DNA from: Alphaproteobacteria bacterium
GTDB taxonomy: Bacteria; Pseudomonadota; Alphaproteobacteria; JAPULJ01
DNA length: 64,000 bases
Direction: 5' to 3'
NCBI GenBank assembly: GCA_037387885.1
Contig: JARRKQ010000001.1
Span: 491-64,490 of the forward strand
Part shown: piece after piece, positions 39,487-64,000 of the stretch
Layout: each line of letters begins with the position of its first letter
How positions within the stretch are numbered: position 1 is the first letter of the stretch
Made by a program: the position numbers and the translations under genes
The notes under the pieces: generated by a model
Told to the model about the DNA's origin: nothing
Databases searched by the model: none
What the model saw: the letters and a program-made list of their open reading frames with translations, nothing else

Positions 39487-39539
39487 GTCTGCTGCTCCTC
39501 GCCGCGCCCGTCGCGAAAGGATTGAATCTCGCTCGAAAC

Positions 39540-39582: not shown

Positions 39583-39645
39583 CTTTGTCAACCGCTGTTG
39601 AAACGACGCTGGACGGCCAGACGGCGGAGAAGGGATCGAACAGAA

Positions 39646-48875: not shown

Positions 48876-50276
48876 TCAGTCCCCAAGAACCTGCATCGCC
48901 GCGGCGCGGCCGGCAAGCCGGCCGAGCACGGTGGCCGTCAGGAGCCCGTTGCCCGAGAGGTAACCCGAGACGTGCGGGCCGGACACACCGCAGGCCGCGC
49001 CGCCGCCGGCGAAGAGATTGGGGAGCGCCGTGCCGTCGGGGCGCAGCACGCGGCCGTCGGCGTCGACCACAAGTCCGCCCTGTGTGTGGAGCAGCGCGGC
49101 GGTCACCCGCACCGCGTAGTAAGGCGGGGCGAGCGGGGCCTGCCCCGTGAAGTCGCGGCCGAAGGGGCAGGGGCGTTCGCCCCTCGCGAAGCTTTGCGTT
49201 TCCGCAATGGTACGCGCGAGGGCGTCGGCCGGCAGGCCGGTTGCGTCAGCCAGCGCTTCGGCCGTGTCGCCCGTCTTGACCGCGCCCGCCTCGAAGGCGG
49301 TTCGGTAGTCGTCGAAGGTCATGCCGAGTTCGTGGATGCGCGCGTCGTAGATATCGAAGACGACGCCCTCTGGCTGGTCCTGCACGAAGACGGCCTGCTC
49401 CGAATAGCCTTGATGCTCGTTGGAGAAGCGCTCGCCCAACAGATTCACTTGAAAGCCGCCTTCCATCATCAACGCCCAGGTGATCTGGATGCCGTGCGGA
49501 TGCGCGATCGAGCCGTGGCCCTGATAGCCGCTCATATCGCGCGTGGCCGCGCCCAGCGCGGCGCCCCAGTCGATGCCCTCGCCCAGGTTGCCGGCATGGC
49601 CGAAATAGAGCGCGTTGGCGATCTCCGGGATGTTCTCGGCCACCATCGACGCGTTCCCGCCGAAGCCGTTGCAGGCCAGCAAGAGCACATCGCAGCCGAT
49701 ATCTTCGGCACTGCCGTCGGGCCGCTCGTACCATAGTCCGTGAACGCCCCCCGTCTCGTCCGCGAAGAGCGCGGTCACATGCGCGTCGCACAATATCTCA
49801 ATCCCGGCAGCCTCGGCGGCATTCCGTAGCGCGTCCATCAGCGCTTGGCCGGTCTTGCCGGGCGGGGCGTGCATGCGCAGACGCGAATGCCCCGGATAGA
49901 GGAAGCCCTCGACCAGCTCGAGCGGAATACCGCGGTCCTCGGCGAGCCAGTCGACGGTGGGGCCGGAGGCGCGGGCGATCACCTCGACCATGGCGGGATC
50001 GTTCTTGTCCTTGGCCTTGCGGCGGAGATCGCCAGCGAAGATCTCGGCGCTGTCGTCGATGCCTTTGGCCGCCTGGATGCGCGTGCCGGCGGCGGGGATC
50101 ATGCCCGACGACATGGCGGTCGAGCCCATCGGCAGCGGATCGCGTTCGAGCACCACGACCTCGGCGCCGAGCTCCGAGGCCGCGAGCGCCGCGGTCAGCC
50201 CACAGGCCCCGGCACCGACGATGACGAGCGGGACGGTGAAGGCGAAATCGGCCTGGTCGGGGCTGAGGATGGTCAT
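48876..50276 (-). CDS. FAD-dependent oxidoreductase of the fumarate reductase / succinate dehydrogenase flavoprotein-like fold (FAD_binding_2; TcuA / 3-oxosteroid-dehydrogenase-like)
   Basis: The N-terminal dinucleotide-binding motif is VIVGAGACGLTAALAASELGAEVVVLER. The C-terminal region reads LFAGGGAACGVSGPHVSG. Confidence 0.8.
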   Translation of the reverse strand: MTILSPDQADFAFTVPLVIVGAGACGLTAALAASELGAEVVVLERDPLPMGSTAMSSGMIPAAGTRIQAAKGIDDSAEIFAGDLRRKAKDKNDPAMVEVIARASGPTVDWLAEDRGIPLELVEGFLYPGHSRLRMHAPPGKTGQALMDALRNAAEAAGIEILCDAHVTALFADETGGVHGLWYERPDGSAEDIGCDVLLLACNGFGGNASMVAENIPEIANALYFGHAGNLGEGIDWGAALGAATRDMSGYQGHGSIAHPHGIQITWALMMEGGFQVNLLGERFSNEHQGYSEQAVFVQDQPEGVVFDIYDARIHELGMTFDDYRTAFEAGAVKTGDTAEALADATGLPADALARTIAETQSFARGERPCPFGRDFTGQAPLAPPYYAVRVTAALLHTQGGLVVDADGRVLRPDGTALPNLFAGGGAACGVSGPHVSGYLSGNGLLTATVLGRLAGRAAAMQVLGD

Positions 50277-50299
50277 GGGCGCCGCCGCGACGCGCGTTC

Positions 50300-51223
50300 T
50301 TAGCTCTGCCCCTTGAATGCCGCGAGGATCTCCGCGCCCGTCGCCGACCAGACGCCGTCATGGCTGGTGATATGCGCGAGCGCCGCCTCGAGCGCCCTGA
50401 TGCGGTGCGGCTGGCCCGACATCCAGGGATGGATGGTGACCGCCATGATCCGCCCGCCCTCGCTTTCGCTCTCGCGGTAGAGCACGTCGAACTGGTCGCG
50501 CACCTGGTCGACGAACTGCGCCTCGGAGTGGTGGTAGCCCATCATGATCGTCTGATCGTCGATCTCGTGGGCGTGGGGCATCGAGTGGATGGTGCCGTGC
50601 TTGGTCTTGATAGCGTAGGGCATGTCGTCGTTGATCCAGTCGCAGACGTAATCGATGCCTTCGGCCGCCACGAGGTCGAGCGTATTCTCCGATTCCGACT
50701 TGGCCGGCGAGAGCCATCCTGTCACCGGCTGCCCCGAGGCCTCGCGCAGGACGCTAAGCGCTTCTTGAACCAGAGCTTTTTCGTCGGCTTCGGCGAGCCC
50801 GCCATAGTGGAGCTTGCCCATATCGACGCCGTTCGCGATCACCTCCCAGCCGCGCGCGTTGATCTCGTCAATGAGGAGGGGATAGCGCTGGGCGATCTTG
50901 GAGTTCACCGCGACCGAGGCCTTTATGCCGAGCGTGTCGAGCAGCTTGAAGACGCGGAAGACTCCGACTCGGTTGCCGTAGTCGCGCAGCGTGTAGTGAC
51001 GAAGGTCGGGATAGGGGGTGACCATGCCGCCCGGCGCCTTGAAGGGCTGGGCCGGCTGGTTGAGCGGGAAGAATTCGAGCGCCGGCACGACCCAGAGCGC
51101 GATGCGCGCGCCGTTCGGCCATTCGATCTTCGGGCGCTTCTGGAGGATCGACCACTCATAGCGGTCGTGATCCATGCCGTAGCCGCGCTTGGGGTATTTG
51201 AGATAGTCGTCGGGGAGCGCCAT
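50300..51223 (-). CDS. Polysaccharide deacetylase (CE4) family protein, PuuE/allantoinase-like
   Basis: KIEWPNGARIALWVVPALEFF and the overall NodB-fold pattern. It is a paralogue of the next gene. Confidence 0.75.
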   Translation of the reverse strand: MALPDDYLKYPKRGYGMDHDRYEWSILQKRPKIEWPNGARIALWVVPALEFFPLNQPAQPFKAPGGMVTPYPDLRHYTLRDYGNRVGVFRVFKLLDTLGIKASVAVNSKIAQRYPLLIDEINARGWEVIANGVDMGKLHYGGLAEADEKALVQEALSVLREASGQPVTGWLSPAKSESENTLDLVAAEGIDYVCDWINDDMPYAIKTKHGTIHSMPHAHEIDDQTIMMGYHHSEAQFVDQVRDQFDVLYRESESEGGRIMAVTIHPWMSGQPHRIRALEAALAHITSHDGVWSATGAEILAAFKGQS

Positions 51224-51227
51224 CGGA

Positions 51228-52142
51228 TCAGCCTCCCTGATGTTTGGCGATATCGGCGATCGCCGTGTCGTAGTGGTGTTCGAGATACCACTGGGCGATC
51301 TCGCGGCCCGTCGTCATCCAGACATCGTCGTGCCCGGTGATGTATTCGAGCGCTTCGGCGAAGGGCTGGATGCGGTGGGGCTGGCCGACCGCGTAGGCGT
51401 GGAGCGGGATGCACATGACCGTGCCGCTCTCCCCGCCCTCCGCATACAACTGGTCGAAGTTCGCCTTCAGCATGTCGGCGTAGCGGCGCGGGGCCTGGAA
51501 GTTGAAGTTGTAGACGATGATGTCGTTCATCTCGAGCGAGTAGGGGATCGAGATGAAGCGGCCCTGCTTCACCTTCACCGGTTGGGGCTGGTCGTCGCAG
51601 AAGAGATCGCAGGTGTAGAGCAGGCCGTATTCGGCCAGCAGGTCCATCGTGCGCTCGGTATGGGTGAGCGCCGGAGCGAGCCAGCCCGCGATCATCTGCC
51701 CGGTGTGCGTCTTCACCGTCTCGATCGCGTCCTCGATGATGGCGCGCTCCTGCGCCTCGTCCATGTCGTAGCAGTAGCGCGTGTTGTAGATGCCGTGGGA
51801 GTAGAATTCCCAGTCGCGCTTGACGCATTCCTCGATCAGCTCGGGATGATGCTCGCAGAGCGCCACGTTCAGCGAGACGCTGCCGCGCACGCCGCAGCGG
51901 TCCATCACCTCCATCATCCGCCAATGCCCGGCGCGGTTGCCGTAGTCGCGCTGGGCGTAGGGCAGGATGGCGGGCGTCGGCCGCGGCCAGGGCGTGCGCT
52001 TGGGGTTCGATGGCGGATCGAGCTCGTAGAACTCGATATTGGGCGCAACCCAAAGGGCGACGCGCGCGCCGTTCGGCCATTCGAGCTTCGGCCGGTCCTT
52101 GTAGGGCCAGTAGTCGTAGAGCCCGGGATCGTCTTTCTGCAT
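51228..52142 (-). CDS. Polysaccharide deacetylase (CE4) family protein, PuuE/allantoinase-like (second copy)
   Basis: 304 aa from MQKDDPGLYDYWPYKDRPKLEWPNGARVALWVAPNIEFY. The 446-aa ORF in the track has an Arg-rich N-terminal artefact. Confidence 0.75.
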   Translation of the reverse strand: MQKDDPGLYDYWPYKDRPKLEWPNGARVALWVAPNIEFYELDPPSNPKRTPWPRPTPAILPYAQRDYGNRAGHWRMMEVMDRCGVRGSVSLNVALCEHHPELIEECVKRDWEFYSHGIYNTRYCYDMDEAQERAIIEDAIETVKTHTGQMIAGWLAPALTHTERTMDLLAEYGLLYTCDLFCDDQPQPVKVKQGRFISIPYSLEMNDIIVYNFNFQAPRRYADMLKANFDQLYAEGGESGTVMCIPLHAYAVGQPHRIQPFAEALEYITGHDDVWMTTGREIAQWYLEHHYDTAIADIAKHQGG

Positions 52143-52156
52143 GTTTTCGGGCTCGC

Positions 52157-52831
52157 TCAGTTGGGGGCCTGCCAGTCCTTCAGATAGCCGATCACGTCCG
52201 CCGCCGGCACGACGTCGGCATACTTGACCGCCATGTCGTAGAGGTTGGCGAAATGCGGGCTCTCGTGCTTGTCGGCGACGCATTCCTCCGCGACCACAGT
52301 GCGGTAGCCGTGGCTGAGGCTGTCGACGCAGGTCGCGCGCACGCAGCCGCTGGTCGACCCACCCGTCAGCACCACCGTGTCGCACTGATGCCAGACCAGC
52401 AGCGATTGCAGATTGGTCTCGTGGAACGCCGAGGCCATGCGCTTGTTGATGATGACGTCGCGGACCTTGTCGATGTTGAGGCGGTCGTCGAACTCCGAGC
52501 GCCTGGACCCGACCTTGATGTTCTGCAGCGAGTCGGGCGTGTCGGTGCGCGTGCCCCAGATGCCGCAATCCTCGCCCGATTCCATATAGGCGACATAGGT
52601 CCAGACGACGGGGATCGCCTTCGAACGCGCGAGATCGGAGATCTCGTTCACGTAATCCATCTGCTTGGGGTCGGTCTCGTAGGCGGTCTTGAACTCGCCG
52701 ACGTTCGTATAGGACTTCTGCAGATCGATATTGACGATCGCCGGTTTGCGGCCGAAGCCGAAGCGCGGGCGCGTCGGGTTCGCCTTGATCTCCTCATAGA
52801 GCTGGCGGGCCGTCTTGTCGGATGTCTCCAT
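52157..52831 (-). CDS. Isochorismatase-family cysteine hydrolase (amidohydrolase)
   Basis: The catalytic Cys is in LTGGSTSGCVRATCVDS and the conserved Lys in IINKRMASAF. It is related to CSHase, RutB and maleamate-amidase-type enzymes. Confidence 0.8.
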   Translation of the reverse strand: METSDKTARQLYEEIKANPTRPRFGFGRKPAIVNIDLQKSYTNVGEFKTAYETDPKQMDYVNEISDLARSKAIPVVWTYVAYMESGEDCGIWGTRTDTPDSLQNIKVGSRRSEFDDRLNIDKVRDVIINKRMASAFHETNLQSLLVWHQCDTVVLTGGSTSGCVRATCVDSLSHGYRTVVAEECVADKHESPHFANLYDMAVKYADVVPAADVIGYLKDWQAPN

Positions 52832-52843
52832 ACCGTCTCTCTC

Positions 52844-53737
52844 CTAGTCGTCTTCACTTTCGTATCGCTTGCCCATATCGAGCATGTCTTTGGTGCCGAG
52901 CAAGTCCTGCAGCCCGTCGAAATCGAGCATGCGGTCGCGCCAGGGCGCGGTCGAGCCGTGCTCGGCGAGGCTTCCGAAATAGTCGCGCAGCATATGGCCG
53001 ACCGCGCGCGCGGTGCCGCCCGGAAAGATCACCAGCTTGAAGCCGAGCGCCTGCAGCGCCGCGGCATCGAGGCTCGGCGTCTTGCCGCCCTCGACCATGT
53101 TCGCCATCAGCGGCGCGGCATTGCCGAGGCGCCCGACCATGGTCTGCATCTCGTCCTCGCTGCGCGGCGCTTCGACGAACAGCATGTCGGCGCCGGCCTC
53201 GGCGTAGCGCGCGGCGCGCTCGAGCGCGGGCTCGAAGCCCTCGACGCCGATCGCATCGGTGCGCGCGATGATCAGCGTGTCGGCATCGGCGCGGGCGTCG
53301 AGCGCGGCTTTGATCTTGCCGACCATCTCGTCGGTCGAAACGAGGTCCTTGTTGTCCAGGTGGCCGCAGCGCTTGGGATAGCTCTGATCCTCAATCTGGA
53401 TCGCCGAGGCGCCCATGCGCTCGAAGAGCTTGACCGTGCGGATCACGTTGAGGGCATTGCCGAAACCGGTATCGGCGTCGACGATGAGCGGGATGGCGAT
53501 GCGCTCGCGGATCGCCGAGACCACGCCCGCAACCTCCTCCATGCCGACGAGGCCGATGTCGGGCCGCCCGAAGCGGGCGTAGGCGATCGAGGCGCCGGAG
53601 AGATAGGCGGCGCGGAAGCCCGCCTCCTCTATCAGCAGCGCCGTGAACGCGTCGTAGCAGCCGGGCGCCACGACGATCTCCCGGCCCGTCAGCATGGCAG
53701 GGAGAGTTTCGCCACCAGGCGTGCGGGCGACATTCAT
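52844..53737 (-). CDS. Isocitrate lyase / PEP mutase superfamily lyase (2-methylisocitrate-lyase / 2,3-dimethylmalate-lyase-like)
   Basis: 297 aa from MNVARTPGG. ...IVDADTGFGNALNV...IEDQSYPKRCGHLDNK is the family active-site loop. Its start overlaps the stop of the LeuD-like gene (ATGA). Confidence 0.8.
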   Translation of the reverse strand: MNVARTPGGETLPAMLTGREIVVAPGCYDAFTALLIEEAGFRAAYLSGASIAYARFGRPDIGLVGMEEVAGVVSAIRERIAIPLIVDADTGFGNALNVIRTVKLFERMGASAIQIEDQSYPKRCGHLDNKDLVSTDEMVGKIKAALDARADADTLIIARTDAIGVEGFEPALERAARYAEAGADMLFVEAPRSEDEMQTMVGRLGNAAPLMANMVEGGKTPSLDAAALQALGFKLVIFPGGTARAVGHMLRDYFGSLAEHGSTAPWRDRMLDFDGLQDLLGTKDMLDMGKRYESEDD

Positions 53738-54243
53738 GCCGCCGCCCCTTTGAGCTTCTTCTTCAGATGCGGCAGCAGGCCGCCATCGGCGATCATGGCG
53801 AGGAGATGCGGCGGGATCGGCTCGCAAGAGAGGCGCTCACCGCCCTCGATCGCAAGGGTACCTTCGGCCGGATCGAGGCTGAGCGTGTCGCCCGCCCTGA
53901 TCTTGTCCGCGTCGGCGCAGACGAGCGCCGGCAGGCCGAGATTGATGGCGTTCCTATAGAAGATGCGGGCAAAGGATTTGGCGACCAGCGCCGATATGCC
54001 GAGCTCGAGCAGCGCTTGGCCCGCCTGCTCGCGCGACGAGCCCATGCCGAAATTCTCGCCGGCCACCAAGATGTCGCCGCGCTGGACGTTGCGGGCGAAG
54101 TCGGGATCGACCGATTCCAGGCAATGCTGGGCGAGCTCCGCCATCGAGCCCTTCATGTAGATGCCGGGCGCGAGCACGTCGGTGTCGATATTATCGCCGA
54201 AGACCCAGGCGCGGCCCGTCAGCGAGGTAATTTGCGCGCTCAT
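53734..54243 (-). CDS. Aconitase-family hydro-lyase small subunit (LeuD-like swivel domain)
   Basis: 169 aa. GDNIDTDVLAPGIYMK...VAGENFGMGSSREQA is typical of LeuD-like subunits. Confidence 0.85.
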   Translation of the reverse strand: MSAQITSLTGRAWVFGDNIDTDVLAPGIYMKGSMAELAQHCLESVDPDFARNVQRGDILVAGENFGMGSSREQAGQALLELGISALVAKSFARIFYRNAINLGLPALVCADADKIRAGDTLSLDPAEGTLAIEGGERLSCEPIPPHLLAMIADGGLLPHLKKKLKGAAA

Positions 54244-55520
54244 GCCGCCTTCTCCATCAGGAAGGCGCGCGGGTCGGTGATGTGGCCGGTGACGGCGCTC
54301 GCCGCCACAGTAAAGGGCGAGGCGAGATAGACCCGGCTTTCGGCATGGCCCATGCGGCCCTTGAAGTTGCGCGCGGTCGACGAAATGCAGACTTCGCCCG
54401 CCGCCAACACGCCGGCGCCATATCCGGCGCAGGCGCCGCAGCCGCTCGGCATCAGAATGGCGCCGGCCTCGGTCAGCACCGCAAGCGTGCCGTCGGCCGC
54501 CGCTTCGTTGGTGATGCGCGCCGAGGCGGGGGCGACCAGAAGGCGCACACCCGGCGCGACCTTGCGGCCGCCCAGGATTGCCGCGGCCATGCGCAGGTCG
54601 CCGAGCTTCGCCCCGGTGCAGGCGCCGATATAGGCCTGATCGATCTTCACCGTGTCGTGCGCCTCTGCATCGGCGGCGTTCTCCGGGCTGTGCGGCGCCG
54701 CGACCTGAGGATTGAGCGTGGTCGCATCGAAGCTGTGGATAGCCTCGACCTCGGCATCCGGATCGCTCTTCCAGTCGAGCGCGTCGTCACCGACATCGGC
54801 GCCGGCGGCGCGCAGATAGTCGAGCGTCACGTCGTCGGGCGCGATCAGGCCGACCTTGCCGCCGAGCTCCGCCGCCATGTTGGAGAGCACCATGCGCTCC
54901 GTCATTGGCAGCGCGGTCATGGCGGGACCGGTGTATTCGATCGCCTTGTAGTTCCCGACCCCCATGCCGAGTTCGCCGCAGAGCTTGAGCATCATGTCCT
55001 TCGCCGCGAGGCCCTCGCCCAGCGCTCCGGTCCACTCGATGCGGATGGTCGGCGGCACCTTGACCCAGATCTCGCCCGTCGCCATCACGCCCGCCATCTC
55101 GGTGGCGCCGATGCCGATCATGAAGGCGGCGAAGGCGCCGCCCGTCGTCGAATGCGAATCGCCGCCGGCGACGAACATGCCGGGCTTCAGATGCCCGCGC
55201 TCGGGCAGCACGATGTGGCAGATCCCCTGCATGTCGTAAAAGGCCTCGACGCCCGTGTCGCGCGCCCATTTGCGCGTCAGGTCGAGGATGGCGGCGCTTT
55301 CGGCATCGACTGCGGGGACGTAGTGGTCGGTGATCAGCACGACCTTCGAGGGATCCCAAACGTCCGCACCGATCTCTTCCAGCTTGGACACGAGGCGCCG
55401 CGGCCCGCTCGAATCGTGGACCATGGCGAGATCGACCTTGGCGGTGACGATCTCGCCCGGTGTGACGGACGGAACGCCCGCCGCCTTGGCGCAAAGCTTT
55501 TCCGCCAATGTCATGCTCAT
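54240..55520 (-). CDS. Aconitase-family hydro-lyase large subunit (LeuC-like)
   Basis: 426 aa. AGGDSHSTTGGAFAAFMIGIGATE and the three cluster cysteines (CTGAKL ... SGCGACAGYG) are present. Confidence 0.85.
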   Translation of the reverse strand: MSMTLAEKLCAKAAGVPSVTPGEIVTAKVDLAMVHDSSGPRRLVSKLEEIGADVWDPSKVVLITDHYVPAVDAESAAILDLTRKWARDTGVEAFYDMQGICHIVLPERGHLKPGMFVAGGDSHSTTGGAFAAFMIGIGATEMAGVMATGEIWVKVPPTIRIEWTGALGEGLAAKDMMLKLCGELGMGVGNYKAIEYTGPAMTALPMTERMVLSNMAAELGGKVGLIAPDDVTLDYLRAAGADVGDDALDWKSDPDAEVEAIHSFDATTLNPQVAAPHSPENAADAEAHDTVKIDQAYIGACTGAKLGDLRMAAAILGGRKVAPGVRLLVAPASARITNEAAADGTLAVLTEAGAILMPSGCGACAGYGAGVLAAGEVCISSTARNFKGRMGHAESRVYLASPFTVAASAVTGHITDPRAFLMEKAA

Positions 55521-55527
55521 GGCGACC

Positions 55528-56367
55528 TCACCCTGCCGGCGACCAGATCTTGCGGTCCTCGCCGTCGATCCGGTTGAGCGTCATCTGATACTGGTAGCGG
55601 TCGGGCCGGTAGAGCCCGGTGATATGCTCCACGGCGCGCTGGTCCTGGTCGTGAACCGTGCGCGTAATGCGCAGCAGCGGGGCGCCGACCTGCACCTCCA
55701 GCAACGGCGCGATGCGCGCATCCGCCAGCGCGGCCGTCAGCGTCTGGTGCGCCGAGGAGACGATCACGCCGCAGCGCTCGAGCAGGGCTAGCAGCGGCCG
55801 GTTGGCCAGATCGTCGCGGCTGTAGGAGCGGCCGAGGGCTTCGGGCACATGCGTCGTCAGATGCGAGAAGGGCTCGCCCTCCATGTGCCGCACGCGCACC
55901 GCGCGCTGAACCGTCGTGCCGGCCTCGCAGCCGAGGGCGCGGGCGATCTCCTCCGAGGCGGCGACGTAGTCGAAATCGAGGAGCCGCACCTCGGTCTTGA
56001 TGCCCATCTGCAGGAGATTTTCGAGCAAGCCTTCGACGGAGGCGCGGACGGGCGGCGAGGGCGCCTCGAAGCGCACCACGGTGCCGCGCCCGCGCTCGCG
56101 GCTCACCAGCCCTTCCGCGGCCAGTTCGTTCAGCGCCCGCTTGGCGGTGACCCGGCTGACCCCATATTGCCGCGTCAGCTCGAACTCGCTCGGCAGGATG
56201 GCGCCGTTGGGATAGGCGCCGCTCACGATCTCGTCGCGCAGGATCGTGTAGATCTGGTGGTAGAGCGGCGTCGGCTGGCGCGCATCGACGCCGCCGCGCG
56301 CGGCCGTCGCATTGGGATCGGCGGGTCGCCGGGCGAGCAGGGTATCTGTTCTCGGCTGCGCGGCCAT
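55528..56367 (-). CDS. GntR family transcriptional regulator, HutC subfamily (UTRA effector domain)
   Basis: The HTH reads LPSEFELTRQYGVSRVTAKRALNELAAEGLVSRERGRGTVV. The start is MAAQPRTDTL at 56367, with GGGAGGA upstream. It heads the minus-strand operon 55520-48876. Confidence 0.8.
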   Translation of the reverse strand: MAAQPRTDTLLARRPADPNATAARGGVDARQPTPLYHQIYTILRDEIVSGAYPNGAILPSEFELTRQYGVSRVTAKRALNELAAEGLVSRERGRGTVVRFEAPSPPVRASVEGLLENLLQMGIKTEVRLLDFDYVAASEEIARALGCEAGTTVQRAVRVRHMEGEPFSHLTTHVPEALGRSYSRDDLANRPLLALLERCGVIVSSAHQTLTAALADARIAPLLEVQVGAPLLRITRTVHDQDQRAVEHITGLYRPDRYQYQMTLNRIDGEDRKIWSPAG

Positions 56368-56442
56368 TGCTGAAGCGGATCCTCCCAAGAAAGCGAGCAA
56401 GCGAGAAAACGGCGCTCGGCTCGCCGTCCAAGTGACATGTTC

Positions 56443-56466
56443 AAATGGTATATTGACATATCATTT
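56443..56466. promoter_or_regulatory. 24-bp near-palindromic motif AAATGGTATATTGACATATCATTT in the GntR / qor divergent promoter (copy 1 of 2)
   Basis: The half-sites AAATGGTAT and ATATCATTT are inverted. It is AT-rich. A near-identical copy lies at 62417-62440. Confidence 0.5.
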
Positions 56467-56582
56467 AATGGGCCGCCAGGGCCGATTGGCCTGTCCCGGT
56501 CGCAATGCCTGGCGTTCCGGCCTATAACCGGCAGCCGCTTCGCGGCGGACGCGCCTCACACCACACCTGGAAAACACGGCTC

Positions 56583-57512
56583 ATGAAAGCGCTTCAGATA
56601 ATGGACTACGGCGGGTCTGAGCAGCTCGCCTTGAACGAGGTTCCCGATCCCGAGCCGGGGCCCGGGGACGTCGTCGTCGACATTGCGGCGGCGAGCCTGA
56701 ACCCGATCGACTGGAAGATGCGCGCGGGCCATATCCGCAAATTCTTCGAGTTCGACATGCCGCATGTGCCGGGCCGGGATTTCTCGGGCACCGTCCGCTC
56801 GGTGGGCGACGGCGTCGAGGGGATCGCGCCGGGCGATCCGGTCTTCGGCATTGCCGAGGTCGCCCGTTGGGGCAGTCACGCGGAAGCGCTCGCGGTCAAG
56901 GCCGGGATGGTGGCGGCCAAGCCCGAGGCGCTCAGCCACGAGGCCGCGGCGGCGCTCGGTATTTCGGCGATCACCGTGCTGGCGGCACTGGAGGTCACAG
57001 CTCCCATCGGCGCGGGCGACCGCATCCTCATTCACGCAGGCGCCGGCGGCGTTGGGCATCTCGCGATCCAGTACGCCAAGCACAAGGGCGCGGAGGTGCT
57101 GACCACGGCGCGCGAGGTGAACCACAGCTTCGTGACCGCCCTCGGCGCCGATGAGGCAATCGATTACACGAAGGTCGATTTCGCCGAGGCCGCGCCCAAC
57201 TGCGACGTGGTGTTCGACACGATGGGCGGCGAGGTCCACCGCCGCTCCTTCGATGCGCTGAAGCCGGGCGGGCTCCTCGTCTATCTGAATGCGGAACCCC
57301 TACCGGAAGGGCCGGGCCGTCCTGATGTCACGGTGCTCAACGCGCAAGTGCGCGGCGACCGGGCGGGGCTCGAGCGCATCGTGGCGCTGGTCGGCGAGGG
57401 GACGTTCAAGCCGGCGGTGGAGAAGACCTATGCGCTGGAAGAGTTCGCCGACGCCTATGCCCGCATCGAGACCGGGCATTCGCGCGGCAAGATCGTCTTC
57501 AAGATGGGTTGA
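56583..57512 (+). CDS. Zinc-binding alcohol dehydrogenase family NADPH:quinone oxidoreductase (MDR superfamily)
   Basis: MKALQIMDYGG, the nucleotide-binding motif AGAGGVGHLAIQ, and about 309 aa. Confidence 0.85.
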   Translation: MKALQIMDYGGSEQLALNEVPDPEPGPGDVVVDIAAASLNPIDWKMRAGHIRKFFEFDMPHVPGRDFSGTVRSVGDGVEGIAPGDPVFGIAEVARWGSHAEALAVKAGMVAAKPEALSHEAAAALGISAITVLAALEVTAPIGAGDRILIHAGAGGVGHLAIQYAKHKGAEVLTTAREVNHSFVTALGADEAIDYTKVDFAEAAPNCDVVFDTMGGEVHRRSFDALKPGGLLVYLNAEPLPEGPGRPDVTVLNAQVRGDRAGLERIVALVGEGTFKPAVEKTYALEEFADAYARIETGHSRGKIVFKMG

Positions 57513-57530
57513 ACATATTCACGGCACCAG

Positions 57531-57594
57531 CCCGCTCCCCCTCCCGGCCGCCTAATTAGGATACTCTCGTAGGGCGGCCGGGAGGGGGAGCGGG
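57531..57594. terminator. Long perfect hairpin (22-bp arms, 20-nt AT-rich loop) between the convergent qor and dctM genes
   Basis: CCCGCTCCCCCTCCCGGCCGCC - TAATTAGGATACTCTCGTAG - GGCGGCCGGGAGGGGGAGCGGG. It has no U-tract, so it is classed as a bidirectional terminator or REP-like element by position only. Confidence 0.5.
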
Positions 57595-57624
57595 CCGGAG
57601 CGAGGCGCCAGCCACAAAAGCCCG

Positions 57625-59079
57625 TCAAAATTTAGCCCAGGGCAGCCAGGTGGCGACCTCGGGGACCATGATGATCAGCGCCACCAGCGCCATGGCGCAG
57701 GCCATGAAGGGGATCGCGGCCAGGCAGATCTCGCTGAACTTGGTGCCCGGCGGCGCCACGCCCTGCATGACGAAGAGCAGAAGCCCGAAGGGCGGCGTGG
57801 TAAAACTGATCTCCATCGCCAGCAGCATGATCACGCCGAACCAGATCTGTGTGACCTCGAGCGGCAGGCCGAACTGAAGCTTGGCGATCACGGGGAAGAA
57901 GATCGGTACCGTGAGTAGCATCATCGCCAGCTGGTCCATGAACATGCCGAGCAGCAGCAGGATGCCGATCATCATCAGCAGCATCACGTAGCCCGACACG
58001 TCGAAGCTGGTCACCCATTCGATCAGCTTGACGCTCGCCCCCGAGGCGGCCAGCACGTTGGAGAACAGCGACGAGCCCAGCAGGATCACCAGCGCGATCA
58101 CGGTGACCCGCCCCGCGCCCCACATCGACTTCCACAAGGCTTTGCCGAAAGCGGGCGCGAAGCGCTTGAGCTGCTCCTTGGCCTCGTCGCGCCGCGCCAC
58201 CGCTTCGATGTCGCGGCCGCCGCTGAACAGCAACCGCACCAGCGGGGCGAAGAAGAGATAGATGAGCCCCAGCAGGATCACGCCCACCGAGCCATAGGCC
58301 GCGGCCTCCGACGGGGTGGCAATGCCGCCCATGATCAGCGCGATGACCATGCCGATGATCGAGATCATCGGCATCACGTCGCGGGCGAACATCTTGAGGC
58401 GCACCATGTAGGGCACGTATTCGACGTCGTAAGCCGGCGCCGCGTCGGGATCGATAGTGGCGCGCACGAAGATCAGCACCGCATACATGAGCGCCAGGAT
58501 GATGCCGGGCACGATGCCGGCGATCAGCAGCTTGCCGATGTCGATCTCGGCGATGGTGCCGAGGAGGACCGCCAGCGCCGAGGGCGGGATCAGCATGGCG
58601 AGCCCGCCCGTGCCCAGGATCGGGCCGATCGACATGCTCTTCTTGTAGCCGCGCTTGGTCATCTCCGGGACCATCAGCGTGCCGAGCAGCGCTGTCGAGC
58701 CCATCGACGAGCCCGAGAGCGTGGCGAGCGCCGTGCCGCCGGCGACCGTCACATAGGAGAGCCGCGCCGGCACCCGGCCCATCAGCATCTCCACCGCGTT
58801 GAACATCCGGTTGGCGAGCCCGGTATGGAAGAAGAGCTCGCCCATCAACAGGAACATTGGTATGGGCACGATTGCGAAGATCGCGATGTTCGAAAACGCG
58901 TTGTCCGCAAGCTGAAAGACGCTCGCCTCGAGATTGGCATCGAAGCCGCCGAAGCGCCCATAGATCAGATAGGCGGTGAACGTGCAGACGATCACGAAGG
59001 CGATGCCCACCGGCACGCCGATGAACATCAGGACCAGGATCGATCCCAGGAGCAGCAGCAGGATCCAGTACCACTCCAT
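57625..59079 (-). CDS. dctM: TRAP transporter large permease
   Basis: 484 aa and highly hydrophobic. The DctM-family blocks are present (MGSTALLGTLMVPEM ... GTIAEIDIGKLLIAGIVPG). Confidence 0.9.
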   Translation of the reverse strand: MEWYWILLLLLGSILVLMFIGVPVGIAFVIVCTFTAYLIYGRFGGFDANLEASVFQLADNAFSNIAIFAIVPIPMFLLMGELFFHTGLANRMFNAVEMLMGRVPARLSYVTVAGGTALATLSGSSMGSTALLGTLMVPEMTKRGYKKSMSIGPILGTGGLAMLIPPSALAVLLGTIAEIDIGKLLIAGIVPGIILALMYAVLIFVRATIDPDAAPAYDVEYVPYMVRLKMFARDVMPMISIIGMVIALIMGGIATPSEAAAYGSVGVILLGLIYLFFAPLVRLLFSGGRDIEAVARRDEAKEQLKRFAPAFGKALWKSMWGAGRVTVIALVILLGSSLFSNVLAASGASVKLIEWVTSFDVSGYVMLLMMIGILLLLGMFMDQLAMMLLTVPIFFPVIAKLQFGLPLEVTQIWFGVIMLLAMEISFTTPPFGLLLFVMQGVAPPGTKFSEICLAAIPFMACAMALVALIIMVPEVATWLPWAKF

Positions 59080-59652
59080 CTAGAGCTCGCTCGCCAGGTC
59101 GCGCTTCTGCTCTTCGAGCTCGATGCGGTCGCTCGCCACCCCGGCGATGCCGACATGCATCGGCTCCTCGGTGAAGGCGAAGCGCAAAAACTCCACCCCC
59201 ATCAGGAAGAAGCCGATGGGAAAGGGGATCGTGCTGATCCAGAGCGGGATGTTGAACTGGGCGCGCAGCTCGTCGAACGACATCGTGTCGCCCCAGCGCT
59301 CGGTGAAGAGCCCCCAAGTGTACCAGGTCCAGATGAAGCAGATGAGCGCCGCCGCCGTGACGATGCCGCGCGAGAGGATCTTGCGGGCGCGCTCGGGGAT
59401 CGCGGCGGTCAGCAGCTCGATATAGATGTGCGCGCGCTGGCGCACCAGCCAGGGCGAGCCCAGGAAGAGGATGTAGACGAATCCGTACTCGATGGCGATG
59501 TTGGCAAACGGCGTATAGGACCAGCCGGCGGCGCGGAAAACCGTCACATAGACGATCATCACCATGATCGCGCCGACATAAAGCGCCGCAATGGCCATCA
59601 ACAGCCAAAGCAGACGTCCCCACAGCCGATCAACGGCCTTCAGGACTGACAT
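59080..59652 (-). CDS. dctQ: TRAP transporter small permease
   Basis: Four predicted TM helices. It lies immediately upstream of and abutting dctM. The start is uncertain, at 59652 or 59679. Confidence 0.75.
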   Translation of the reverse strand: MSVLKAVDRLWGRLLWLLMAIAALYVGAIMVMIVYVTVFRAAGWSYTPFANIAIEYGFVYILFLGSPWLVRQRAHIYIELLTAAIPERARKILSRGIVTAAALICFIWTWYTWGLFTERWGDTMSFDELRAQFNIPLWISTIPFPIGFFLMGVEFLRFAFTEEPMHVGIAGVASDRIELEEQKRDLASEL

Positions 59653-59791
59653 TGCCCCCCTTGCTGTCCCCTGTGCCATTGGCGCCCCACACGCCGAATG
59701 ACGCCCTCATTGACGCCGATGGCGCCGAAAAATCGATCCCGGGACCAGCTGCGAGATGGCCCCGGGATCATCGATGAGCCGACCTCAGTGA

Positions 59792-60796
59792 CTACTCGCG
59801 CCAGGTCGCGCGCAGCTTGGCGGCGTTGCCGGCGCCGCGCTTGGTCTTTTTCAGGCGGTTGACCATGCGCTGATAGGCGCTGTCGACAGCCAGCTTCACG
59901 TATGCCTTCGGGTTCGGCACGGTGTAGAACTTCATGCCCTCATCCATCAGCGTCTTGCGCTCGGCGGCCGCCAGGGCCAACAGCTTTTTGCGAGCGGCGG
60001 ACTCCTGCGCGATGACCTGATCCTGGATCAGCTTCTTCGCGGCCGGGCTCAATGAGTTCCATTTCTTCAAGTTCATGATCCAGCCGATGTCGGTGTGGAA
60101 GAACTCCGGCTCGACGGCGTGGCGCAGGAACTTGTCCCATTTGAGGCCCTTGAGGCCGATGGTCGCCCAGGCCGCCGCGTCGACCACGCCCTTCTCAAGC
60201 GCCGGATAGGTGTCTGTGGCGCGGAGCGTGTGGGTGGTGGCCTTCATGGCGCGGAAGAAGGCGCCATAGATCGGGTTATCGCGCAGCTTCACGCCGGTGA
60301 AGTCGATCAGCCCGTCCTTGGTGAATTTCGGCGGGTTCTTCATGTAGATGCGGAAATGCCCGCCCGACGAGGTCCAGCCCAGATACTTCACGCCGAAATA
60401 CTTCTGGTGGATTTCGTCAAGGAGCTTGAAGCCGCCATTGGCGCGGACATGGCTGGGCGAGGAGTTCGAGGTCGCCACGGCTTCCGCTTCCGGCAGGCCG
60501 CGCGCGTAGAAGGCGGCGGGAATGCAGGAAATGTCGACGCGTCCGGCCTTGACCGCCGGCGGCTGCTTGAACATGCCGATCGAGTTGAACGGCAGGACCT
60601 TGATGTGCACCACGCCTTTGCCGGCCGCGTTGATCTTGCCGACCAGCTCCTTGCAGAGCTTGGTGTAGATCAGATAGTCGGGGAACGGGTGAACGAGCGT
60701 GAGCTCGGTCGCGGCGGCGTTCGCCGGCGCCGAGGCCGTTCCGATCACCGCGGCGGCGCTCGCCGCCAGCACAAATGATTTCAATTTAGTTTTCAC
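59792..60796 (-). CDS. TRAP transporter substrate-binding protein
   Basis: A signal peptide (MKTKLKSFVLAASAAAVIGTASAPANA) is followed by a periplasmic SBP fold. It lies upstream of dctQM in the same orientation. Confidence 0.8.
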   Translation of the reverse strand: MKTKLKSFVLAASAAAVIGTASAPANAAATELTLVHPFPDYLIYTKLCKELVGKINAAGKGVVHIKVLPFNSIGMFKQPPAVKAGRVDISCIPAAFYARGLPEAEAVATSNSSPSHVRANGGFKLLDEIHQKYFGVKYLGWTSSGGHFRIYMKNPPKFTKDGLIDFTGVKLRDNPIYGAFFRAMKATTHTLRATDTYPALEKGVVDAAAWATIGLKGLKWDKFLRHAVEPEFFHTDIGWIMNLKKWNSLSPAAKKLIQDQVIAQESAARKKLLALAAAERKTLMDEGMKFYTVPNPKAYVKLAVDSAYQRMVNRLKKTKRGAGNAAKLRATWRE

Positions 60797-60981
60797 AGTC
60801 TGCCTCCTAGCTTGTAGGTCACTCTCTCCAGTCCGATTTTCTTCAAGTCCGATTTCTTAACGTCAGATCGTTTGTCGCCTGCCGCAATCATCCCACGCCG
60901 ATGGCGACACGACAATGTTTTTGCTGGATATCCAACAATCAGGGTAAAGACGGTCGGACGCGTTTTGCGGGCAAAACAGTC

Positions 60982-62073
60982 TCATGCCGCGCGCTCCGCG
61001 GTGATCAGCGTCCAGGGAAAGCGCCAATCCGAATGCTTCGGGTCGAGCGCGCCGTCGGCTTCCTCGAAGGGCGTGACGGCCACGTTCTTGAAGCCCTTGG
61101 CGGCCAGAACCGCCGGCAGATCCATCTTCGCGAAGGGCTCCATGAAGGGCTCGTTGTTGCGCCGGCCATGCCCGTAATGGATGAAGCGGGCGAAGGCGTC
61201 TGGCAGGTGGTGGAAATCGAGATGCACCATGCGGCCGCCCGGCTTCAGCACCCGGCGCGCCTCGTCGAAGGTCGCCTCGATCACCTTGGGCGGCATTTCG
61301 TGCAGCAGCATGGTCGAGGTGACGACGTCGAAGCTTTCGCCGTCGAGCCCTGTATCCGAGGCATCGCGTTGGGCGAAGCGGACATTGCGGCTCTGATGAT
61401 CGGCCGCGCGCCTTGCGGCGAGCTTGAGGCAGGGCGCGGATAGATCGACGCCGACCACGGATGCATTGCGGAAGCGCTCATACAAAGGCTCTGTCGACTT
61501 GCCGAAGCCGCAGCCCATGTCGAGCAGGCGGTCCGGCGCGCCACCGGCTTCGATCGCGTCGGCCAGGCGGTCGTGCAGATCCTTGTGGCGCGCGCCATGC
61601 GTCGGCGTCGTGGTGCGCGCGCCGCGCTCGTAGACATAGCCGGCGATCTCGTCCGACCAGACCCCGCCCGGATGCTGGTGAATGTCGACGGCGGTGTAGT
61701 AGGTGGGCTGCTCGAACCCCGGATCGAGATCGAGCAGGCCCGGCGGCAGATCCGCCGGATCGAGGCTCGCCTCCAAGGCCGCGCGCTGCTGGGCATGATA
61801 GGGCTCAAGCCCGTAGCGGCCGGAATACTTGAAGCGCTGCAGATGCCGCTCGAGCCAGGCATAGGCCTGATAGAGCGTCGTTCCGCCGATCAGATCCGCG
61901 GCGTCGGCCGCGGTCTCCGGCGGTCTTTCGGCCGCCGCCGCGCGTTCATCGTAGTCGCGCCTCAGGGCCGGAAAGATCTCGCGCGTCCAGTAGAGCTTGG
62001 CCGCCAGAATGAAGGCCTGGCCGGCGGCGAAGCTGCGCCCATCGATCTCCGGCGCTGATTGCGACCCCGCCAT
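60982..62073 (-). CDS. Class I SAM-dependent methyltransferase
   Basis: Motif I reads LLDMGCGFGKST, motif II is an acidic loop (VVGVDLS), and motif post-I VLKPGGRMV is also present. Confidence 0.8.
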   Translation of the reverse strand: MAGSQSAPEIDGRSFAAGQAFILAAKLYWTREIFPALRRDYDERAAAAERPPETAADAADLIGGTTLYQAYAWLERHLQRFKYSGRYGLEPYHAQQRAALEASLDPADLPPGLLDLDPGFEQPTYYTAVDIHQHPGGVWSDEIAGYVYERGARTTTPTHGARHKDLHDRLADAIEAGGAPDRLLDMGCGFGKSTEPLYERFRNASVVGVDLSAPCLKLAARRAADHQSRNVRFAQRDASDTGLDGESFDVVTSTMLLHEMPPKVIEATFDEARRVLKPGGRMVHLDFHHLPDAFARFIHYGHGRRNNEPFMEPFAKMDLPAVLAAKGFKNVAVTPFEEADGALDPKHSDWRFPWTLITAERAA

Positions 62074-62433
62074 TCAGCGCGCGCCCTTGGAGACCTGCTC
62101 GCCGAGCAGGTTGCTCATCAGATGTGCGACGAAGGCCTCGCGGTCGGCGGCGTTCGCCGCCAGCTCGTCGGGGCTCGGCTCGGCATCGAGGGCGTCCTGC
62201 GCCACCACGCCAGCTTCGGCAAGGCGTGCTTCGAGCGCCCGCAACCGGTCGCGCAGCACATAGACCTCGCTGGCCAGCGCCATGGTCACGCCGAGAACCC
62301 GGTCGATGGCGGGGTCCTCGAAGAAGGTTTGCTCGGCCCGGGGGCCGGTCTCGTGCTCCGCGCCCATCTCCCTGACCCATTGGACGTCCGGCGTCTTCAA
62401 TTCCGTGCGCCGGATTAAATGGTATACTGACAT
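62074..62433 (-). CDS. Small hypothetical protein (119 aa), translationally coupled to the methyltransferase; its start codon lies inside the 24-bp motif
   Basis: It begins MSVYHLIRRTELKTPDVQWVREMGAEHETGPRAEQTFFEDPAIDRVLGVTMALASEVYVLRDRL.... The composition is coding-like. Its stop abuts the methyltransferase start. The ATG at 62431-62433 is part of AAATGGTATACTGACATATCATTT. Confidence 0.5.
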   Translation of the reverse strand: MSVYHLIRRTELKTPDVQWVREMGAEHETGPRAEQTFFEDPAIDRVLGVTMALASEVYVLRDRLRALEARLAEAGVVAQDALDAEPSPDELAANAADREAFVAHLMSNLLGEQVSKGAR

Positions 62434-62440
62434 ATCATTT
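62417..62440. promoter_or_regulatory. Second copy of the 24-bp motif (AAATGGTATACTGACATATCATTT), in the divergent region between the small-protein/methyltransferase operon and the tautomerase-SnoaL gene
   Basis: 23 of 24 positions match the copy at 56443-56466. Confidence 0.5.
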
Positions 62441-62566
62441 GCGGCCAGACCAGCCCCCAATCTTGGGGCAGGCGCGGCATTCGCCCGTGTTATGATCTTG
62501 CAAACACTGCCGGGGACGCCCGGGGCGGCAAACCGGGACCCAAGTCGAAGACCCAAGGAGAAGATT

Positions 62567-63154
62567 ATGCCGGTTGTGACGATCACCCTGATGGAAGGCT
62601 ATGACGACGATGTCCGCACGGCGCTGTCCGAGCGGCTGACCGATGCGGTGCGCGCGACCATCGCAGCGCCCTTGGACGGCATCACCGTGCAGATCAACGA
62701 GGTCAAGCCCACCGGCTACATGCGCGGCCGCCAGCGCCGGAAACCGGGCGAACCCGTGCCCGACGCCGCGACCGTCGTGCACGACTATCTGAAGGCAATG
62801 GAGGCGCGCGATCTCGACAAGGCGAAATCGATGCTCGCCGATGAATTCATCATGTATTTTCCCGGCACCGGCGAGATGCGCGGCCTCGACGAGCTGATCG
62901 GCTGGGCGAAGGACCGCTATGCCTCGGTCGGCAAGACCTACGAGCGCTTCGACGTCGCGCCGGGCGAGGACGGGGTTGCGGTTTACTGTTACGGCATGTT
63001 GGCCGGCGAATGGCTCGACGGCTCCAAGTTCAGCGACATCCGCTTCATCGACCGCTTCACCGTGCGCGACGGCAAGCTTGTCGATCAGCGCGTTTGGAAC
63101 GATATGGGTGAGACGATGTTGAAAGCGGCCGGCGCGCGCGCGGCGGCGGAATAA
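62567..63154 (+). CDS. Fusion protein: N-terminal 4-oxalocrotonate-tautomerase-like domain (Pro1) plus a C-terminal SnoaL/NTF2-like domain
   Basis: MPVVTITLMEGYDDDVRTALSERLTDAVRATIAAPLDGITVQINEV has the Met-Pro start and the beta-alpha-beta tautomerase unit. The C-terminal ~125 aa (ATVVHDYLKAMEARDLDKAKSMLADEFIMYFPGTGEM...) is SnoaL-like. AAGGAG lies 6 nt upstream of the ATG at 62567. Confidence 0.65.
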   Translation: MPVVTITLMEGYDDDVRTALSERLTDAVRATIAAPLDGITVQINEVKPTGYMRGRQRRKPGEPVPDAATVVHDYLKAMEARDLDKAKSMLADEFIMYFPGTGEMRGLDELIGWAKDRYASVGKTYERFDVAPGEDGVAVYCYGMLAGEWLDGSKFSDIRFIDRFTVRDGKLVDQRVWNDMGETMLKAAGARAAAE

Positions 63155-63177
63155 ATCGGGGACAGGAGAGCACGGGA

Positions 63178-63588
63178 ATGAAGATCAACGGAGCCTGCCA
63201 TTGCGGCGCCATCACCTACGAGGCCGAGGTCGATCCGGAGATGTCGCGGATCTGTCACTGCTCCGATTGCCAGACCATGTCGGGTGCGCCTTACCGGGCC
63301 ATCGTGATCGCCAAGGAGGAGGATTTCAAAATCCTCACCGGCACGCCGAAGATCTACGTCAAGACGGCGGAGAGCGGGAACAAGCGCGACCAGGGTTTCT
63401 GCGGCGACTGCGGCACCGCGCTCTTCGCCACCTCCCATGGCGGCGATGCGCCGAAGATCTACGGTCTCCGCCTCGGCGCCATCAAGCAGCGCGACCAGAT
63501 CCGCCCGACCGGCCAGATATGGACCGCCTCGGCCCAGCCCTGGGTGAACGATCTCCACGATATTCCGGGCTTCGAGAAACAGTCCTAA
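63178..63588 (+). CDS. GFA (glutathione-dependent formaldehyde-activating, CENP-V-like) family protein
   Basis: The zinc-binding cysteines lie in CHCGAITYE...CHCSDCQ...CGDCGTALF. Confidence 0.8.
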   Translation: MKINGACHCGAITYEAEVDPEMSRICHCSDCQTMSGAPYRAIVIAKEEDFKILTGTPKIYVKTAESGNKRDQGFCGDCGTALFATSHGGDAPKIYGLRLGAIKQRDQIRPTGQIWTASAQPWVNDLHDIPGFEKQS

Positions 63589-63594
63589 CGACCG

Positions 63595-64000
63595 CTAATC
63601 CGCTTTCGGCCAGCCGCGCACGCTGACGCGGTTCATGATGCGGGCGTCCTCGGGGCCGGTCGACTCGTCGAGCTTCGGGCCGGTGTGGAGCGTGGCGGCG
63701 TTGTCCCAGATCACGACGTCGTCAACTTCGTAGGAATGCGCGTACTGCACCTCGGGCGCGATGGCGTAACGGCCGATCTCGTCCAGGAAATTGCATGCTT
63801 CGTCCTCGGGCATACCCTCGACGCCGATGCAGGTGCTGGTCGCCCCGTAGAGCGCCTTGCGCCCGGTTGCGGGGTGCTCGCGCACCAGCGGATGATGCAC
63901 GGTGGGAAAGGAGCCGTCGCGCCGGCCCTCGTAGCAATGCGCCACGGTGGCGGAGTCCGCTTGCTTGCGTAACGCCTCCGGTAGCGACTCCAGCGCCGCA
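63595..64000 (-). CDS. TauD/TfdA-family 2-oxoglutarate-dependent dioxygenase, C-terminal part; the N-terminus lies beyond the window
   Basis: The frame is open to position 64000 (...EALRKQADSATVAHCYEGRRDGSFPTVHHPLV...AATLHTGP...RIMNRVSV). The C-terminal His and Arg-containing blocks of TauD-like enzymes are present. Confidence 0.75.
   Translation of the reverse strand, partial: AALESLPEALRKQADSATVAHCYEGRRDGSFPTVHHPLVREHPATGRKALYGATSTCIGVEGMPEDEACNFLDEIGRYAIAPEVQYAHSYEVDDVVIWDNAATLHTGPKLDESTGPEDARIMNRVSVRGWPKAD

Follow-up and report, generated by a model that had tools for sequence, protein, structure and literature searches.

Why should a 24-bp, AT-rich near-palindrome occur twice, almost letter for letter, in GC-rich DNA, once beside the gene of a transcriptional regulator and once some 6 kb away in the spacer between two other divergent genes? 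The question is raised by a stretch of alphaproteobacterial DNA (contig JARRKQ010000001.1), 64,000 nucleotides of which were analyzed (henceforth the window), and in which a reading made from the sequence alone had taken the two elements for operators of one small regulon. The elements, and the regulator gene beside the first of them, are:

56443–56466, strand not applicable: candidate operator, copy 1, AAATGGTATATTGACATATCATTT, flanked by the HutC-family regulator gene on one side and the divergent quinone oxidoreductase gene on the other
62417–62440, strand not applicable: candidate operator, copy 2, AAATGGTATACTGACATATCATTT, flanked by the small-protein/methyltransferase genes on one side and the divergent tautomerase-SnoaL gene on the other
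55528–56367, minus strand: GntR/HutC-family regulator of 279 amino acids (aa), winged helix-turn-helix plus UTRA domain (Pfam GntR 1.9e-20, UTRA 1.1e-35)

The explanation that best accounts for all of the data jointly, and to which the sequence comparisons below lead us to give a high probability, is that both 24-mers are operators of the regulator encoded at 55528–56367, that genes diverging from them would be repressed by it, and that the two copies derive from one ancestral site.

Occurrence of the motif and the company it keeps

Direct inspection of the sequence bore out the positions claimed for the two 24-mers and their identity at 23 of 24 positions. It likewise bore out their AT-richness (75% AT within DNA of 66% GC) and their inverted half-sites: the arms, AAATGGTAT and ATATCATTT, are 9 bp each and enclose a 6-bp centre. 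The palindromes are imperfect, with 18/24 and 16/24 positions self-complementary in the two 24-mers. Gene and Pfam annotation of the flanks agrees with the gene context that had been given for each copy.

With up to three mismatches allowed on either strand, the 64-kb window contains the two copies and no other match; 100 dinucleotide shuffles gave none at the same threshold. Four pairs of 24-mers in the window differ by one mismatch or less: a hairpin, a pair within two paralogous genes, another palindrome and the pair in question. This count was made separately, in place of a general repeat finder, whose results for the window were dominated by low-identity GC-rich matches and did not rank the pair. 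Since 5 of 30 first-order Markov simulations also produced one 24-mer pair at this level, the repeat taken by itself is only suggestive; the pair becomes decisive because it is AT-rich in 66% GC DNA, because both copies are intergenic and because it is conserved in other genomes. Beyond the motif edges copies 1 and 2 share no similarity, and so do not form part of a longer duplication. A Megablast search of positions 55500–63600 against plasmids returned no match.

Two contigs are syntenic with the window (L001 and L005; their small proteins are 86% and 78% identical to that encoded beside copy 2). In both, the motif is kept at both positions, and in spacer alignments it forms an island of identity amid poorly alignable DNA. 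Copy 1 is kept in L001, L005, L022 and L027–L031, its flanks having diverged; copy 2 is kept in L001, L005, L025 and L107, and is enclosed by an invariant flank, GGATT...GCGG. Within the clade of the window the only variable motif positions are 6 (G/A), 11 (all four bases) and 19 (T/C).

When 185,579 species genomes were scanned for exact matches to ATGRTATANTGACATATCAT, 19 loci were found. In the only related genome among them (DATKZM01; L023 and L024) the exact 20-mer occurs only at the two cluster sites, a measure of genome-wide rarity that rests on exact matching in this one genome, and exact matching catches no weaker sites. Of five more exact matches, four (L010, L017, L022 and L025) are beside genes of the cluster in high-GC alphaproteobacterial DNA, and one (L015) is beside another GntR-type gene.

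Metagenome contigs were searched with an alignment of five regulator orthologues, which yielded 80 loci at 52–99% identity. Of these, 78 were used for upstream tests, where the test region was the 320 bp upstream of the orthologue and the controls were 856 equal-sized windows from elsewhere in the same loci. Using the consensus of the window clade and allowing up to five mismatches, a site is present in 36 of the 78 upstream regions and in none of the controls; with up to seven mismatches the counts are 53/78 and 2/856. A symmetrised position weight matrix (PWM), refined on the upstream regions, has the consensus wAATGrTATA-N4-TATAyCATTw. It reaches 18 bits or more at 66/78 orthologous loci versus 2/856 controls, a result to be read with the caution that the matrix was trained on the same upstream regions, a circularity that the mismatch test avoids. 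When applied to the window, this family PWM gives 37.3 bits for copy 1 and 33.6 bits for copy 2; the next best position scores 9.2 bits. The best score outside both site-bearing spacers, 8.2 bits, falls at 39536–39586, where an AT-rich spacer of divergent open reading frames (ORFs) contains TTAATTGATAGTGTTATATCATAA; this is probably the site of another regulator.

The association is exclusively with orthologues of the regulator, and the motif travels with them down to ~52% identity whatever the neighbouring genes. Those neighbours vary among loci (a TRAP or Liv-type ABC transporter, a PrpD-like gene, a quinone oxidoreductase); what stays constant is the regulator gene. The hydratase and lyase genes are found elsewhere either inside the HutC operon or with a site of their own. 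In L010 and L017, for example, the regulators are 51% identical to that of the window, the 20-mer stands directly upstream of the regulator gene, and a Liv-type ABC transporter follows that gene; in L010 hydratase genes come after the transporter, and the 20-mer lies between the regulator gene and a divergent tautomerase-SnoaL gene. A 4.98-Mb contig (L108; regulator 61% identical) has the typical order: tautomerase-SnoaL and, beyond a 136-bp spacer with TAATGATATAACATTATATCATTT, the genes for regulator, Liv-type ABC transporter, hydratase, lyase and hydantoinase B. The last of these (L108 16211–16819) follows the lyase gene within the HutC operon.

Gene context, coding potential and origin of the two copies

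The genes around the two sites are the following:

48876–55520, minus strand: run of genes downstream of the regulator gene, with gaps of −4 to 23 nt as taken from the coordinates
48876–50276, minus strand: TcuA/flavocytochrome-like FAD protein
51228–52142 and 50300–51223, minus strand: two PuuE-like CE4 hydrolases
52157–52831, minus strand: isochorismatase-type amidohydrolase
52844–53737, minus strand: PrpB-like lyase
53734–54243, minus strand: hydratase small subunit (LeuD-type)
54240–55520, minus strand: LeuC-type hydratase large subunit
56583–57512, plus strand: quinone oxidoreductase of the zinc-ADH family, divergent from the regulator gene, its ATG (56583) 117 bp from copy 1
57625–60796, minus strand: TRAP transporter genes dctP-dctQ-dctM, within the block between the two copies
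60982–62073, minus strand: SAM-dependent methyltransferase, 363 aa, its start abutting the small-protein stop
62074–62367, minus strand: small conserved protein, 97 aa, without a Pfam family, ATG at 62367–62365, 50 bp from copy 2
62567–63154, plus strand: tautomerase-SnoaL fusion, 195 aa, ATG at 62567, 127 bp from copy 2
63178–63588, plus strand: GFA-family gene, 24 bp beyond the tautomerase-SnoaL gene

The regulator gene itself starts with the minus-strand ATG at 56367, which copy 1 precedes by 76 bp.

Each copy contains an ATG, and it might be asked whether the common stretch is coding, with MS(V/I)YHL as the genuine N-terminus of two small proteins, or is a chance or mobile repeat. ORFs that start from the motif ATG do exist at both copies, and one database gene call (P0042; L107 8001–8387) begins within the operator as "MSLYHL", its product having 128 aa against the usual 92–97 aa. 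The 78-aa MSIYHL ORF at copy 1, however, overlaps the regulator gene in another frame, and the sequence-only reading was right to regard it as non-coding. That reading had also placed the ATG of a 119-aa ORF inside copy 2: the ATG is present in the motif, but it is not the real start of the protein. The small protein has more than 200 homologues, mostly of 92–97 aa; in their alignment conservation begins near GPRAEQTFF, downstream of the motif ATG, and the first residue of most homologues corresponds in it to Met23 of the 119-aa ORF. In L001 and L005 the motif ATG lies 76 nt from the annotated small-protein start and is therefore out of frame, with a stop after 30–41 codons.

Judged by homologue lengths and reading frames, the true small protein is the 97-aa product of 62074–62367, and the MSVYHL start is not coding; copy 2 is consequently wholly intergenic. 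The conservation of MS(V/I)YHL is better understood, as had been proposed, through protein binding than through coding: the apparent N-terminus is a by-product of the operator sequence. As to a chance or mobile repeat, there are two copies only, without terminal features and without flanking similarity. We attach practically no probability to either of these explanations. By the same comparisons, the 'MS[VIL]YHL' N-termini in protein databases are an annotation artefact of gene callers that start inside the operator. The window counterpart of the spurious N-terminal extension is 62368–62433. An exact look-up of the 119-aa ORF and of protein P0001 in the contig index gave no match.

How did a candidate operator come to be present twice? 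In about half of the loci with enough upstream DNA, the gene that diverges from the regulator gene is tautomerase-SnoaL, and the spacer of the two usually contains one site. This arrangement is the commonest among diverse orthologues and, since it is found over the whole 52–70% identity range, is likely to be ancestral. It recalls the divergons of catabolic clusters: likewise, a single palindrome, set in a ~100–150-bp spacer, would in most orthologous loci serve both the regulator gene and the divergent tautomerase-SnoaL gene. The window clade (L001, L005, L028–L031 and L107) differs in that this pair is split by ~6 kb of inserted genes (small protein, methyltransferase, dctPQM and quinone oxidoreductase) and in that the operator is present twice, with one site at each end of the block. 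The asymmetric centre, which reads TATGTCA(A/G)TATA in the direction of the regulator gene, is retained in both window copies, and so is the orientation of single-site relatives whose regulators are 66–70% identical. It is likely, to go by these features, that copies 1 and 2 are paralogues of one ancestral operator between the tautomerase-SnoaL and regulator genes. An independent split is seen in L032, where a PrpD-like gene stands between the members of the pair and is flanked by two sites that have a common centre of their own, GTAAT.

The regulator, the promoters and the proposed mode of action

Residues 35–98 of the regulator form a GntR-type winged helix-turn-helix domain (PF00392, E = 1.9e-20) and residues 121–259 a UTRA effector domain of chorismate-lyase fold (PF07702, E = 1.1e-35). 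The recognition helix, VSR(I/V)TAKRAL, is nearly invariant over ~80 orthologues. A nearly equal helix, VSRITSKKAL, occurs in a regulator from another phylum (L015; Spirochaetia bacterium MS502-67, BNVD01000160.1), an AraR-like protein with a GntR helix-turn-helix and a domain of sugar-binding type; at 3132–3151 of this locus the identical 20-mer, ATGGTATATTGACATATCAT, stands 3 nt upstream of the first in-frame ATG of the regulator ORF.

The best NCBIfam matches of the window regulator are HutC and PhnF, both of them local, self-regulated repressors of catabolic operons; the protein falls below every NCBIfam equivalog cut-off. HutC proper was rejected (TIGR02018, 119.6 bits against a cut-off of 220; no hut genes in the cluster), as was PhnF/PhnR (TIGR02325, 114.2 against 156.8; TIGR03337, 63.8 against 296.75; no phn genes in the cluster). 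The core of HutC-type operators is GT-N-TA-N-AC. The earlier reading had seen in the motif the size of a HutC/GntR operator and its GT...AC elements. The first part stands, in that the element is an imperfect palindrome of 24 bp, a length within the ~15–24 bp of such operators, close to the regulator's own gene. The second is a loose resemblance: the family consensus TGrTATA-N4-TATAyCA contains GT...AC only when r = G and y = C, and its spacing is wider than in GTnTAnAC.

The closest solved homologue is NagR/YvoA of Bacillus subtilis (4u0v, E = 4e-33), and the regulator could be aligned over its full length to the NagR and DasR structures. The NagR dimer binds an imperfect palindrome before its own operon and before a transporter gene, and is released when an effector binds the C-terminal domain (PMC4333415). 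Its Arg38 and Arg48 read two guanines of the dre half-site (GG at −5/−4), and the wing touches the minor groove with Gly69 (PMC4333415). The equivalent residues here are Phe62, Arg72 and Gly93. The two proteins share the GntR/HutC architecture and the equivalents of Arg48 and Gly69; they differ at the Arg38 position, which is never Arg among the orthologues and is Gln in most. The operators are unrelated in sequence: the half-site here is TGrTATA, with its G ~8 bp from the dyad and without the GG at −5/−4, so that the reading of GG by Arg38 and Arg48 that defines the dre type is found neither in the window regulator nor in its site. Phe62 in place of Arg38 would fit a half-site in which a single G is conserved and the inner part is AT-rich. 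The genes near the window regulator, moreover, are not for amino-sugar use. DasR of Streptomyces is similar in being of the HutC subfamily and in having a palindromic site (16 bp; solved homologue 4zs8, E = 6e-26); it differs in motif and in being a global regulator with many sites, compared with two in 64 kb here and two in the related genome (exact 20-mer). In kind, the site appears from its sequence to be an ordinary HutC-type operator of a local gene switch, different in sequence from dre.

Could the motif instead be a core promoter, an UP-like element or the site of an alternative sigma factor common to the two promoters? It is AT-rich in GC-rich DNA, copy 1 contains TTGACA, and there are TATA-like strings. 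In L010 and L017, too, the site is overlapped by TTGAC(A/T)-N16-TATCAT, oriented towards the regulator gene, so that a −35-like hexamer abuts the motif and the internal TATCAT could be a −10 element. The conservation, however, is dyad-symmetric, and the arms co-vary (TGGTATA...TATACCA versus TGATATA...TATATCA); as both arms vary together across orthologues, a dimeric protein is indicated rather than a directional promoter. Furthermore, the window spacers contain no correctly spaced two-hexamer promoter, and other copies have CTGACA, ATGACA or GTGACA in place of the internal TTGACA. We therefore judge a promoter element to be very unlikely. For a repressor site the same hexamers have a ready place: since TTGAC(A/T) lies just upstream in L010, L017 and several other loci, the site would cover the spacer and the TATCAT −10-like element of the regulator promoter. 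Beside the ATATCATTT arm most copies have TTGCGG or TTGnnn, and it may be conjectured that this is a −35 element overlapping the site.

A palindrome may also act as RNA, whether by folding into a hairpin within a 5′ leader or by serving as attenuator or terminator, and a hairpin of 9–10 bp can indeed form. Such hairpins are nonetheless weak (−2 to −6.4 kcal/mol, z-scores −0.1 to −1.6) and lack a T-run; a terminator scan of both window spacers found none, and a scan of 55000–64000 gave no Rfam family match for the motif. What is conserved is sequence identity, beyond mere pairing, and the element sits in divergent spacers, where its transcription is not required. A role as RNA has hardly any likelihood.

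The reading of the motif as a DNA site for the adjacent regulator has several observations to set against it. The conserved G lies ~3 bp further from the dyad than in the dre site of NagR, and because of this the binding geometry may differ from that of NagR. A sigma-70 consensus promoter scan of both window spacers found none, and promoter occlusion there is accordingly an assumption. Of the 78 orthologous loci, 12 have no site of at least 18 bits; these negatives include loci with only a half-site and one with odd spacing, and in three the site is found just downstream of the regulator gene, before the lyase gene. The metagenomic loci are not independent lineages, 63 of 66 compared site-plus-flank sequences being distinct. 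Exact matches to the 20-mer are also present at 11 unrelated loci in other phyla, among them Campylobacterales, Clostridiales, Balneola, Victivallales and Pseudomaricurvus. At least four of these matches (L008, L012, L020 and L026) are inside long ORFs, and a Pfam scan of the genes flanking five intergenic ones (L009, L014, L016, L018 and L019) found unrelated genes and no GntR gene. All 11, including L011, L013 and L021, were set aside as chance matches or unrelated elements. In one of them (L014 3935–3978; Clostridiales metagenome-assembled genome JAFVAY010000002.1) the 20-mer lies within a ~44-bp palindrome directly upstream of a formate-tetrahydrofolate ligase gene; there is no GntR gene in this 8-kb locus.

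Finally, the site in L025 has no regulator gene inside the 8 kb examined, and the link between regulator and site is one of association. Both points would suit a different arrangement, in which the motif is the operator of another transcription factor, encoded elsewhere, and the adjacent HutC-type protein recognises some other sequence; so would the presence of a second regulator motif upstream of dctP, which implies that more than one factor acts in the cluster. Yet the HutC orthologue is the only DNA-binding protein whose gene travels with the motif through dozens of gene contexts, its recognition helix is as conserved as the motif, and in another phylum the 20-mer recurs at the gene of a GntR-type protein whose helix is almost identical. 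We thus consider another factor unlikely, if the least so of the alternatives discussed.

If the sites are operators of the adjacent regulator, the likeliest mechanism, by analogy with its relatives, is repression by a dimer and release by a metabolite. A regulator dimer would bind each imperfect palindrome and, because each site sits in a short divergent spacer, would block both promoters. Four units would be held off in this way: the regulator gene plus the operon for hydratase, lyase and amidohydrolases; the quinone oxidoreductase gene; the genes of the small protein and the methyltransferase; and those of the tautomerase-SnoaL and GFA-family proteins. The regulator would thereby repress its own gene as well. 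A metabolite of the pathway would then bind the UTRA domain and release the regulator.

The small regulon that had been proposed holds for its core, in that tautomerase-SnoaL and regulator-(transporter)-hydratase-lyase recur with the motif. The methyltransferase and the quinone oxidoreductase are lineage-specific and are placed in it by position. As the quinone oxidoreductase arrangement is confined to the window clade, membership of this gene is suggested by its location, and the same would apply to the small-protein/methyltransferase genes, which have this position in the window clade.

Neighbouring genes, a second palindrome and the wider cluster

The genes at 48876–55520, downstream of the regulator gene, are probably one operon. 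The lyase belongs to the PEP-mutase family, and its best NCBIfam score is PrpB-like (294 versus a cut-off of 354). The two PuuE-like CE4 genes (50300–52142) are adjacent paralogues, with DNA stretches 71–92% identical and repeats at 51054–51172 and 52012–52130; they look like a local tandem duplication. A gene for a GAF-domain adenylate/guanylate cyclase (47671–48843, same strand) follows 32 nt after the FAD-protein gene, at the end of the putative HutC operon. On the other side, the tautomerase-SnoaL protein has a solved homologue (9mua, E = 7.5e-57), and the order tautomerase-SnoaL then GFA is kept in L001 and L005; the GFA-family gene is probably co-transcribed with the tautomerase-SnoaL gene. 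The pair of small-protein and methyltransferase genes is kept in L001, L005 and L107. Between the convergent ends of the quinone oxidoreductase gene and dctM lies a GC-rich hairpin (57524–57601; 29-nt arms, 93% complementary) that looks like a bidirectional terminator, and the region 57522–57603 draws spurious, sub-threshold miRNA-type matches in Rfam.

The TRAP transporter genes show a more complicated picture. In L025 the site lies between the tautomerase gene and dctP, and in L035 dctPQM are downstream of the regulator gene; from these arrangements the transporter belongs to the regulon elsewhere. In the window clade a different palindrome stands upstream, and dctPQM may therefore be controlled separately or jointly. 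This second palindrome, TTGTTGGAnnTCCAACAA, is unrelated to the first and has three matches in the window at up to three mismatches, where 0.04 are expected:

12990–13007: TTGTTGGAnnTCCAACAA match
13992–14009: TTGTTGGAnnTCCAACAA match
60921–60938: TTGTTGGAnnTCCAACAA match, upstream of dctP

The perfect copy forms the centre of a ~38-bp palindrome at 12980–13017. One site lies in the spacer separating a hydantoinase/oxoprolinase A/B operon from an enoyl-CoA hydratase gene, another precedes a MarR-family gene, and the third, kept in L001 and L005, precedes dctP. Together they probably define a MarR-type regulon that overlaps the HutC cluster. The hydantoinase A/B genes of the window (9102–12910) are 43 kb from the HutC cluster and beside the MarR-type motif; taken with the hydantoinase B gene in the HutC operon of L108, this hints that the HutC and MarR-type regulons serve one pathway. 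Just upstream of the dctP start, at 60830–60861, is a tandem direct repeat, AGTCCGATTTTCTTCA / AGTCCGATTTCTTAAC, given here on the strand opposite the gene.

Orthologues of the regulator are widespread: at E <= 1e-60 there are more than 1,000 clusters (90% identity), mostly from uncultured Alphaproteobacteria, under no name other than "GntR family transcriptional regulator". A search of the literature on the cluster, the motif, tautomerase-SnoaL fusions and cyclic-imide catabolism found no description of such a system. Taken alone, the element would be a routine regulatory site. Its interest is that it ties the tautomerase-SnoaL protein, the LeuCD-type hydratase, the PrpB-like lyase, the amidohydrolases, the 97-aa protein and the methyltransferase into one putatively co-regulated unit, recurring in many environmental Alphaproteobacteria, and so offers a handle on the substrate; it also provides a case of operator duplication upon gene insertion into a divergent promoter region, and accounts for the recurrent "MS[VIL]YHL" misannotation of the small protein. 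Beyond this we suggest, as a tentative possibility, that the operator may mark a widespread and apparently uncharacterised catabolic regulon, with a core of tautomerase-SnoaL, LeuCD/DmdAB-type hydratase and PrpB-like lyase to which variable transporters and hydrolases are added. The hydrolases attached to the core are of ring-opening or amide type (PuuE-like CE4, isochorismatase-type, hydantoinase/oxoprolinase), and one may speculate that a cyclic imide or similar N-heterocycle is degraded via an alkyl-substituted maleate/malate to pyruvate and a short acid. If this is true, the regulator and its operator would be a ready-made biosensor for finding the substrate.

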